This document shows, one piece after another, positions 43,101 to 46,100 of a DNA stretch of 55,188 nt (position 1 is the first letter of the stretch; each line of letters opens with the position of its first letter). The DNA comes from a virus (taxonomy: Duplodnaviria; Heunggongvirae; Uroviricota; Caudoviricetes): IMG/VR virus record IMGVR_UViG_2850802633_000006; one strand, given 5' to 3'. Position numbers: made by a program.

Positions 43101-46100
43101 CGCATCAGCAAAACCAGACATAAAAGTGATGCGATCTATTGCACTTTTTGTAACGCCGCGAGCGTTACAATCTGCATTACCGTCTATCATTTGTTGATCC
43201 GCCCATGCCCAGAAGCGAATAACCTTCCCTAATGCGGCATCTGGATCAATATTCAGAATCTCAGCAAGCCTGAATATTTCCGGCTTATCCGGCGTAATAA
43301 CCTCGAGCTTTATCCAGTTTGAAGCCATTTGTTTTCACCTTGTAACGCTCGCAGCGTTACATTTAACTGATACCGAACAAAACAATCCGGCACGATTAAT
43401 TTCAATCAATGCACTACGACAGAATCGCCGGGCGACCCACCACCGCTGAAATGTGCTTTCCGGTAAACGGCCTGGACAGCATCATCATGCGCATCAATTG
43501 CCGTACTCAACGCTTCCTGCGCCGCCAGTAATGCACGGCGTTCCAGGGTATCGAAGATACAGAGTCGGTGACGCAGCTCACGCGGAAGAATTGCCAGAAC
43601 CGCAGGGATCAGTTTCTGAATTTTTTCCCTTTGCGCTTTCGTTTCACCTTTCAACCAACGGTGATAGATATTCTGCTGATTGTTCCAGTCCTTGCCTGGT
43701 ACCAGAGACAATTCGCCGCCCCCCTGCCGCAGATATTCTTCAGTAATTGCGTTAGCGACCCACGCCTGCCCTTTTTCGGCTGCCAAGGCTAACAGCACTG
43801 ATTCGATGTGCTCATGCCTGATTTTCATGAATCACCTTCCCAGGTCGTTTTGCCTTACGATATTCGTCATAAACTTTGGGGTCGTACTGAAGTTCCCCGC
43901 CAGATGCCTCTTGCAGGCGCATCGCGCGACCTTCAGGAACCAGTTCCCCCCATGCAGCAATGCTTGCCAGCCTAACTCCTGCGGCATTGGCAAGCTTTGT
44001 TTTGCTGCCAAAAAACGCTATAGCATCAATTTTCAACATATCGAGCTCCTTAGATTTTCCTAAGGAAACCAGGCCGTAGAGAAACCTAAGTCAAGAAAAA
44101 TTAGAATTCCCTAATATGAAAAACGAAACCTTCGGTGCTCGCCTCTTACATAGGCGTAAAAAATTAAAACTGTCTCAGGCCGCATTAGGTAAGCTGGTCA
44201 AAGTGGCTCACGTAACAATTTCTCAATGGGAAAGAGATGAAACACAGCCGGCGGGGAAAAGATTATTCGCACTGAGCCAAGCGCTTCAGTGCTCACCGAC
44301 TTGGCTTCTTTTTGGGGATGAAGATAAACAACCAGGCGAACCGATCCCGGATAATCAGCCAGCCATTCTGACAGAAGATCAAAAAGAGTTACTTCAACTG
44401 TTCGACGCACTGCCTGAGTCAGAGCAAAAGGCCCTGTTGTCAGAGATGCGTGCTCGAGTTGAAAATTTCAACAAACTTTTTGAAGAACTACTCAAAGCTC
44501 GCAAAAGAAGCGCAAACAAATAATCCCCTTTTTTCTCCACACCCTGTAATAAAAAGCACAAACTTTCAAACACTTGTGTTTTTTACATCAAAAAACTTAG
44601 GTTTTTCTACACAAAAATCTTGATCACCCTCCTTAGGTTATTCTAAATTTTATTCATCAAGACACCGCACGGTGTTCTCAGCAAACAGTTCCGCTACCCC
44701 GGCGTTAAGGGGAAATGGGGTCAACATGAATACTATCGATCTTGGCAACAACGAATCTCCGGTGTACGGCGTGTTCCCCAACCAGGACGGCACATTCACC
44801 GCCATAACGTATACCAAAAGCAAAACGTTTAAAACCGAAGCTGGCGCACGTCGTTGGTTGGGAAGACATTCAGGTGAGTAAAATGAACGAGACAGAATTA
44901 AAACACGTTATCGCTCTACTCCTAGAAGATGCAAAACGCCTCCAGCAACTGGAGCCAAATGCAGGCACTGGGGCACGCATCTGGCTGGCTAAAGAAGCGC
45001 TGGAATCTGGCGATTATGATAGCGAAGAAGCCTTCTACAAAGCAGAAGGCCGTGCAGGATATTCACCGGGTCTTGGCGGGGTATAAATACCATGCGCATT
45101 GACTGAATTCGCAAACAAAAACAGACGCGCGATACCCGGATAGTCGGTCTGCATAGTCAGATATCTGGCTGCGAATTTGATAAATATCACCGCCCTTTTC
45201 GGAAACATAAGTTCCGTCCGGGAGTTGATTATACGAACCATCTCCATGGGGGATCGTTCTCCTGAATCCTAGTGAGAGCATATATTTATGAAGCCCTTCG
45301 TAATCCTCTGGCTCAGTGGATTTGCCCCTATATTTCCAGACATCTGTTATCACTTAACCCATTACAAGCCCGCTGCCGCAGATATTCCCGTGGCGAGCGA
45401 TAACCCAGCGCACTATGCGGATGCCATTCGTTATAATGCTCGAACGCCTCTGCAAGGTTCTTTGCTGCCGTTAACCCGTCTGGTTTGGGCATGATACTGA
45501 TGTAGTCACGCTTTATCGTTTTCACGAAGCTCTATGCTATTCCGTTACTCTCCGGACTCCGCACCGCCGTGTTCTTCGGTTCAAGTCCCAACATCCGGGC
45601 GAACTGGCGTGTTTCATTAGCCCGGTAGCATGAACCATTATCCGTCAGCCACTCCACTGGAGACGACGGAAGATCGTTGCCGAAGCGGCGTTCCACCGCT
45701 CCCAGCATGACGTCCTGTACTGTTTCACTGTTGAAGCCGCCGGTAGTCACCGCCCAGTGCAGTGCCTCACGATCACAGCAGTCCAGCGCGAACGTGACAC
45801 GCAGTCTCTCTCCGTTATCACAGCAGAACTCGAACCCGTCAGAGCACCATCGCTGATTGCTTTCTTTCACGGCCACTCTGCCTGTATGTGCCCGTTTCGA
45901 TGGCGGTACAGCAGGTTTTCGCTCAAGCAACAGCGCATTCTGGCGCATGAGCCGGTAAACACGTTTGGCATTGATCGCAGGCATACCATCAAGTTCTGCC
46001 TGTCTGCGAAGCAGCGCCCATACCCGACGATAACCATACGTGGGCAGCTCTCCGATAACATGGTGTATACGGAGAAGCACATCCGTATCATCAGTGTGAC

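Follow-up and report, generated by a model that had tools for sequence, protein, structure and literature searches.

We analysed a 55,188-nucleotide stretch of DNA (hereafter the window) from IMG/VR virus record IMGVR_UViG_2850802633_000006, a virus of the class Caudoviricetes, in which a repressor gene and a Cro-like gene diverge from a short intergenic gap. We consider it very likely that this locus is a lambdoid immunity switch of the Qin (DicA/DicC) type, following the layout of P22 immC, and that palindromes of the form TTAG-N6-CTAA are its operators. This reading is directly supported by the homology of the genes, the positions of the sites, their statistics, their conservation and their co-variation with the repressor. 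The switch system, its operator core and its logic have already been described for Qin in Escherichia coli K-12 (PMC3441716, PMC10448788, PMC11430063). The two genes of the switch are:

43812-44039, minus strand: Cro-type (dicC-like) gene, 75 amino acids (open reading frame (ORF) with DicC homology and a Pfam P22_Cro match)
44116-44523, plus strand: dicA-like repressor gene, 135 amino acids (P22 c2-type helix-turn-helix (HTH) domain and helical C-terminal domain)

A preliminary description of the window had reported divergent cro-like and cI-like genes separated by 76 bp, and both ORFs were present as described, with the gap at 44040-44115. The repressor aligned over its full length with K-12 DicA, a protein of the same length (62% identity over 131 aligned amino acids, E = 2e-60), and the Cro-like protein aligned over its full length with K-12 DicC (75% identity, E = 3e-43). 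In Pfam, the repressor matched HTH_3 (8e-14) and nothing but HTH families, all within residues 6-72, and the Cro-like protein matched P22_Cro (3e-13, 49.7 bits against a cutoff of 30.2). The N-terminal domain of the repressor matched the DNA-binding domain of P22 c2 (1adr/2r1j) both in sequence (phmmer, 1e-21) and in fold (Foldseek, root-mean-square deviation of 0.5 A, 63% identity, TM score of 0.95-0.98 on the target). In the AlphaFold2 (AF2) model, with a predicted local distance difference test score (pLDDT) of 86, helices spanned residues 6-66 and 87-134 with a linker between them. Helix 2 covered residues 21-28 and helix 3 residues 32-39, and the C-terminal half was formed by two helices (87-134). 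An S24 (LexA-like) autocleavage domain was found neither by Pfam nor among the fold matches listed. The module also occurs in PPompW-group phage records at 94.7% DNA identity, where the genes are annotated as dicA and dicC.

Five full TTAG-N6-CTAA sites, exact or with one mismatch, were found around the repressor gene, three in the 76-bp gap and two flanking or covering a downstream promoter:

44047-44066: O1 (Oc equivalent), TCCTTAG-ATTTTC-CTAAGGA, a perfect 20-bp palindrome of 7+6+7 (halves 44047-44053 and 44060-44066; core 44050-44063)
44076-44089: O2 (Om equivalent), GTAG-AGAAAC-CTAA, one mismatch, within the spacer between -35 and -10 of the leftward promoter
44101-44114: O3 (Oa equivalent), TTAG-AATTCC-CTAA, exact core, ending 1 bp short of the repressor ATG
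44597-44610: O4, TTAG-GTTTTT-CTAC, one mismatch, next to the downstream promoter's -35 on its upstream side
44633-44646: O5, TTAG-GTTATT-CTAA, exact core, placed across the downstream promoter's spacer and -10 (K-12 equivalent atgTTAGtcatggCTAAtct)

The perfect palindrome noted earlier, TCCTTAG-N6-CTAAGGA, corresponds to O1, which abuts the -10 of the leftward promoter and matches K-12 Oc in core and offset (-66). Extra half-sites had been noted in the gap as well; they were present, and proved to belong to two further full sites, O2 and O3. Similarly, the two direct repeats downstream of the repressor gene (CTTAGGTTTTTCTA at 44596-44609 and CTTAGGTTATTCTA at 44632-44645) were confirmed as identical at 13 of 14 positions, and each turned out to be an imperfect palindrome (TTAG-N6-CTAC at O4 and TTAG-N6-CTAA at O5). 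Centre-to-centre spacings of the operators were 26, 25 and 36 bp.

The exact TTAG-N6-CTAA sequence occurred three times in the window, always at the switch locus, against 0.36 expected, and none of 100 shuffles reached three. When up to one mismatch was allowed, 5 of the 14 matches in the window fell inside the 600-bp switch locus. Dinucleotide shuffles limited to the two AT-rich non-coding stretches of the locus gave a mean of 0.19 sites against the five observed, and none of 20,000 reached five. The preliminary description had based operator specificity on a CCTTAGG half-site and proposed a search for it across the prophage. This 7-mer was not enriched: it occurred only twice in the window (44059-44065, minus strand; 44631-44637, plus strand), against 3.85 expected. 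We therefore dropped CCTTAGG as the recognition unit in favour of TTAG-N6-CTAA; its TTAG core stands, its trailing G is a spacer base, and the (C)C flank is specific to a subgroup of relatives. The non-random element is the paired arrangement rather than CCTTAGG alone.

To follow the sites among relatives, we used 137 loci (80 from viral contigs and 57 at one genome per species), which were reduced to 75 non-redundant loci. The core TTAG-N6-CTAA was found at -66/-65 and -16/-15 from the repressor ATG, together with a pair after the stop codon 35-36 bp apart. Core and offsets were shared by at least 10 genera (Escherichia, Citrobacter, Pantoea, Erwinia, Enterobacter, Buttiauxella, Serratia, Yersinia, Rahnella and Rouxiella), and the core was conserved in Enterobacterales down to about 50% identity of the repressor protein. 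The conservation of the half-site in loci with homologous repressors, on which the preliminary description had staked its operator assignment, was thus observed for the core, and the CC flank was kept in the subgroup only. In 18 diverse intergenic regions, the columns conserved at 80% or more were TTAG and CTAA of both outer sites, AGTCAA, and the ATG. The conserved columns of the downstream region (16 diverse loci) were the TTG of the -35, TTAG and CTAA of the promoter-proximal site, and the final T of the -10. O2 was kept in nearly all members of the window subgroup and was degenerate in the K-12 subgroup. Two relatives with the helix 3 sequence SHATISLWE (L094, 1425-1452; L099, 1430-1452) had no TTAG-N6-CTAA and carried TTGTTGAG...TTAACAA at the Oc position, which may be a third operator class. 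Three DicA-type loci (L090, L100 and L102) were E. coli-like in sequence and lay on contigs binned to metagenome-assembled genomes of Collinsella, Bacillota and Veillonella; these contigs are most likely mis-binned enterobacterial ones.

The reading of the palindromes as operators draws on experiments in K-12. The DicA operator Oc, TTGTTAGTCATAACTAACAA (TTGTTAG-N6-CTAACAA), binds DicA in vivo, and a single A-to-C change in it (CTAA to CTCA) abolishes the binding (PMC3441716). Oc and the -10 of the dicC promoter overlap; from this position, DicA acts as a repressor of dicC and an activator of dicA (PMC3441716). In chromatin immunoprecipitation sequencing (ChIP-seq), DicC gave its strongest signal at the dicA locus, with inferred sites on both sides of dicA and a TT(A/C/T)G ... 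C(G/A/T)AA palindrome as motif (PMC11430063). [quoted passage not shown] Relative to the dicA ATG, TTAG-N6-CTAA lay at -66 and -16 in the K-12 sequence, and a further one covered the -10 of dicBp; these positions are those of O1, O3 and O5. The earlier comparison of the downstream pair with OL/pL was therefore apt, since by K-12 homology the pair sits on a dicBp/pL-type promoter, and the proposed immunity switch with palindromic operators was borne out as a lambdoid one by the DicA/DicC homology and the conserved sites. A literature search for the exact operator sequences returned only K-12 Oc; the window variants were not found.

The base pairs flanking the core varied together with the repressor. 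The CC flank was restricted to the subgroup with the helix 2 sequence SQAALGK (at least 74% identity to the window repressor), and relatives with TQR(S/E/A) in helix 2 carried TGTTAG, even where their helix 3 (AHVTISQWE) equalled that of the window. For the O1-type site, the count took in each of its two half-sites at 57 non-redundant short-type loci. With Ala following the helix-2 Gln, the base 5ʹ of TTAG was C in 57 of 60 half-sites; with Arg at this position it was G in 29 of 36 and never C. The HTH of the Cro-like protein did not co-vary with the operator flank: TGTTAG operators accompanied a Cro almost identical to that of the window in both E. albertii and E. ruysiae. Because of this lack of co-variation, the Cro-like protein would read the core only, in agreement with the DicC ChIP-seq motif, which is confined to the core. 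The flank and helix patterns speak for the sites being the sequences read by the repressor, and suggest that the window type and the Qin type would be separate immunity classes. We tentatively extend this to a proposal that we rate as possible at best: the base 5ʹ of TTAG (C in the window, G in Qin) would be the immunity determinant, recognised by helix 2 through its second residue (Ala22, against Arg in K-12 DicA), the prophage would be heteroimmune to Qin-type elements, and the Cro-like protein could cross-act on both.

The following promoters, terminator and first operon genes were assigned around the operators:

44089-44094, minus strand: -35 (TTGACT) of the leftward (dicC-type, pR-like) promoter; AGTCAA is the block kept in at least 80% of the 18 intergenic regions
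44066-44071, minus strand: putative -10 (TGGTTT) of the leftward promoter, placed by positional homology to K-12 TATCTT, 17 nt past TTGACT
44550-44585, plus strand: likely intrinsic terminator after the repressor gene, a 12-bp hairpin of A-tract, stem and T-tract, from RNA folding
44620-44649, plus strand: downstream rightward promoter (dicBp/pL equivalent), -35 TTGATC (44620-44625) and -10 TAAATT (44644-44649), by homology to K-12 TTGACC-17-TAATCT
43406-43828, minus strand: ydaT-like gene, 140 amino acids, second in the leftward operon (94% identical to Rac YdaT; Pfam YdaT_toxin, 5e-11)
43818-43835, minus strand: YdaT-box GTGATTCATGAAAATCAG over the ydaT start codon (16 of 18 positions identical to the Rac YdaT-box ATGATTCATGAAAATCAA)
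44726-45086, plus strand: first genes of the controlled operon, a ydfA-like gene (44726-44881) and a 67-amino-acid ORF (44883-45086) (DUF1391, 3e-26; PHROG matches)

The start site of K-12 dicC was mapped by rapid amplification of cDNA 5ʹ ends (5ʹRACE; PMC3441716), and we infer the -10 of the leftward promoter in the window, like the position of the downstream promoter, from the alignment with K-12. The leftward -10 was TGGTTT in the window copy and in one relative (L012), against TA.... (TAGTTT, TAATTT or TATTTT) in all other members of the subgroup. The missing -11 A, otherwise conserved as the second base, suggests a promoter-down variant. As no Shine-Dalgarno sequence precedes the repressor ATG, TAGAAT (44102-44107), lying inside O3, is a possible -10 for a leaderless repressor transcript, of the kind that lambda cI has from PRM. 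The hairpin at 44550-44585 (-9.6 kcal/mol, z = -3.98; matched by none of 200 shuffles) probably terminates transcription of the repressor gene; it was missed by a simple terminator scan because its stem has few G-C pairs. The ydfA-like gene was 91% identical in DNA to K-12 ydfA.

The pairing of proteins with sites and the direction of regulation, like the promoter positions, were transferred from the K-12 experiments, and on that basis the switch would work as follows. A dimeric, non-cleavable DicA-like repressor would recognise 20-bp two-fold sites with the core TTAG-N6-CTAA and, in the subgroup, the CC/GG flank. At O1, beside the -10 and over the start region, it would shut the leftward promoter, which would serve the dicC-like gene, ydaT and the replication genes, and so keep the lytic arm off; by analogy with K-12, the bound repressor would also stimulate its own weak promoter. 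O2 would lie within the leftward promoter spacer. O3, over the putative repressor -10 and start, would be a likely site for the Cro-like protein, or for excess repressor, to switch the repressor gene off, and the Cro-like protein is predicted to bind the same core as the repressor. O4 and O5 would bracket and cover the rightward promoter driving an operon that runs from ydfA to a DicF-like element and a Rha-family gene, and repressor dimers there would silence this promoter. Since the repressor lacks an S24 domain, induction would need a Rem-type antirepressor or stochastic switching, as reported for Qin.

Several observations weigh against this picture or parts of it. A consensus promoter and terminator scan detected none of the proposed promoters and returned one promoter-like site inside a gene and a weak minus-strand hairpin; homology was therefore used to place the promoters, and folding to place the terminator. 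Several further helix-2 residues differ between the Ala and Arg groups, and the Ala-type subgroup probably forms a single clade, in which case one evolutionary event may account for the co-variation. When K-12 Om and Oa were tested alone, DicA did not bind them (data not shown in PMC3441716), and O2 and O3 may for that reason not be independent repressor sites. Finally, with TGGTTT as its leftward -10, IS2 inside the controlled operon and a truncated Rem-like gene, the switch of the window may no longer work.

The observation on Om and Oa leads to the alternative that we take most seriously, although we lean against it: only O1 and the O4/O5 pair would be true repressor operators, and O2 and O3 would be mainly sites of the Cro-like (DicC) protein, depend on cooperativity, or be conserved through their overlap with promoters. 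Beyond the K-12 result (PMC3441716), O2 shares its right half with the conserved -35 and has a left half that degenerates outside the subgroup, O3 lies across the putative repressor -10, and the absence of flank co-variation in the Cro-like HTH fits a protein that reads the core only. On the other hand, nearly all relatives preserve the TTAG-N6-CTAA core of O3 without mismatch and at a constant offset, and the 25-26 bp centre spacing resembles that of lambda OR. At lambda OR, weak sites are filled cooperatively.

The state of this copy raises a second alternative, which we regard as rather unlikely: the window would hold a frozen relic, in which repressor production may continue but neither the lytic arm nor the controlled operon functions any longer, and descent alone has preserved the sites. 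The following insertion lies in the controlled operon:

45314-46656: insertion sequence IS2 with InsC/InsD-type ORFs, interrupting the operon after its second small ORF

This IS2 was 99.6% identical to a copy elsewhere in L002, a 99%-identical and otherwise collinear genome stretch in which the insertion site is empty. The Rem-type antirepressor gene (39277-39474, minus strand) retains its first 39 codons (39358-39474), after which it is cut by IS1 (38590-39358). L002 holds an intact 95-amino-acid Rem-like gene (15489-15776), sharing 68% identity with K-12 Rem and 79% with PPompW rem. Many further insertion sequence (IS) copies, the TGGTTT in place of TA.... at the leftward -10 and a split ydaV-like gene point in the same direction. 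Against a mere relic, neither the repressor and Cro-like ORFs nor any of the five sites is damaged, and many prophage copies encode a repressor 100% identical to this one. Moreover, cryptic prophages typically retain their repressor for silencing toxic genes (PMC10448788). Given both the damage and the intact repressor module, the switch is probably stuck in the repressed state.

The Pfam family names YdaS_toxin and YdaT_toxin could suggest a toxin-antitoxin cassette, in which an XRE antitoxin would autoregulate through the palindrome and YdaS and YdaT would be the toxins. We regard this as very improbable: the YdaS_toxin match of the Cro-like protein reached only 4e-4, under the cutoff, and P22_Cro was its significant match; YdaS and YdaT have been shown to be Cro and CII equivalents (PMC8630535, PMC9986795, PMC5917428); and the neighbourhood, with its replication genes and a pL-type operon, has lambdoid synteny. 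Still less credible is a Rac-type RacR/YdaS/YdaT module, despite the ydaT gene, its preserved YdaT-box and look-alike repeats in the Rac intergenic region, because the repressor gave no significant alignment to RacR (BLASTP E = 2.9), the Cro-like protein gave none to YdaS, and the Rac repeats have N7 instead of N6 between TTAG and CTAA. The preliminary description had recommended the Rac racR-ydaS region as comparator; Qin DicA/DicC is the correct one, and a Rac-type identity of the repressor/Cro pair was discarded, with only ydaT matching Rac.

As observed in passing, the K-12 racR-ydaS intergenic region (L141, 1270-1340) carries TTAGGC-N3-GCCTAA repeats, equivalent to TTAG-N7-CTAA, that resemble DicA sites, and RacR is unrelated in sequence. 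YdaT is a functional analogue of CII (PMC9986795, PMC11879457), and the ydaT-like product of the window matched the PHROG family 'CII-like transcriptional activator' (6e-37). The Rac YdaT-box ATGATTCATGAAAATCAA was footprinted with DNase (PMC11879457). A YdaT motif search gave no match within the operator regions, its single relevant match being the YdaT-box at the ydaT start; YdaT binding was accordingly rejected as a source of the palindromes. BLAST boundaries placed Rac-like sequence up to 43834 and PPompW-like sequence from 43819. Since the box coincides with this change from Qin/PPompW-like to Rac-like sequence, its region is a possible module-exchange junction.

Compared with the Qin (Kim) cryptic prophage, the Qin-type switch of the window has the same gene order, protein sizes (135 and 75/76 amino acids; 62% and 75% identity), operator core and site positions, with ydfA next and a Rem-type antirepressor gene within the same prophage (truncated in the window copy). 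It differs in the flank (CCTTAG, against TGTTAG in Qin), in helix 2 (SQAALGK, against TQRSLAK), in the well-formed middle site O2, and in the partner gene downstream, which is Rac-type ydaT rather than ydfX. It also lacks dicB, and instead of a full DicF it has a diverged remnant followed by an isrK/C4/Rha module. P22 immC shares the c2-type HTH, a P22_Cro-family Cro, divergent genes, multi-site operators and a second operator set at the leftward-operon promoter. P22 operators have the half-site TTAAG with a 4-bp centre, so that the core would be off by one base in a similar register. P22 c2 itself differs in having 216 amino acids with an S24 autocleavage domain, against 135 without one (PMC10448788). 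Lambda cI/cro is alike in its bistable-switch logic, in three sites 25-26 bp apart between divergent genes and in a repressor gene that, as the sequence suggests for the window, has neither leader nor Shine-Dalgarno; its operators are unrelated in sequence, its Cro is of another fold family, and induction in the window would be RecA-independent. Gifsy-type non-cleavable repressors are similarly short, lack a peptidase domain and follow a Rem-type antirepressor logic (PMC10448788), whereas the Rem-like gene of the window is truncated. The Rac system shares ydaT and the YdaT-box, and its repressor and Cro are unrelated.

Beyond IS2, the distal part of the operon contained the following:

46869-46919: diverged DicF-like element (Rfam DicF, 28.6 bits against a gathering score of 48)
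47155-47231: isrK-like RNA
47256-47343: C4 antisense RNA
47398-47952: Rha-family / Ant-like gene, with both RNAs directly upstream

In the DicF-like element, the terminator half of K-12 dicF was conserved and the 5ʹ seed region was different; neither a full DicF (Rfam) nor dicB was found in the distal operon of the window. The stretch 47155-47952 resembles a P1 immI-type antisense-controlled antirepressor module, here placed in a putative pL-type operon. The annotated start of the Rha-family ORF in relatives probably runs through the RNA genes.

The module is hosted by a decayed, IS-riddled, Shigella-like lambdoid prophage. IpaH-family type III effector genes (LRR_TTSS and NEL E3 ligase) flank the region at 1060-2823 (plus strand) and 53377-55188 (minus strand), and together with many IS1, IS2 and IS600 copies they point to a Shigella-type chromosome. 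Two replication modules were present, one at 35480-38764 with a DnaB-like helicase and a DnaC/IstB-like loader, and the other at 41792-43328 with Rac-type ydaU/ydaV, ydaV being divided between two ORFs. Their presence suggests that IS-mediated rearrangement joined the remnants of two prophages into a composite. In addition, a hok/sok-type toxin-antitoxin was found at 39724-40049 (sok RNA, 117 bits; a 70-amino-acid ORF with a Hok-like peptide), and four tRNA genes (Gly-TCC, Thr-TGT, Arg-TCT and Met/Ile-CAT) were clustered at 34048-34358 in the prophage late region.

The window locus adds little to what is known of the mechanism. It shows a genome in which the repressor module is intact while IS elements break up the surrounding prophage, and it provides TTAG-N6-CTAA at fixed offsets as an operator marker for a repressor family common in prophages of E. 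coli, Shigella and other Enterobacterales. From the relation between flank and helix 2 follows a testable rule by which these prophages could be assigned to immunity classes, and which would help to predict cross-talk where cryptic prophages with toxic cell-division genes reside together. If the proposed determinant is true, many enterobacterial prophages would fall into immunity classes set by a very small change in protein and DNA, and the Cro of one prophage could derepress another.

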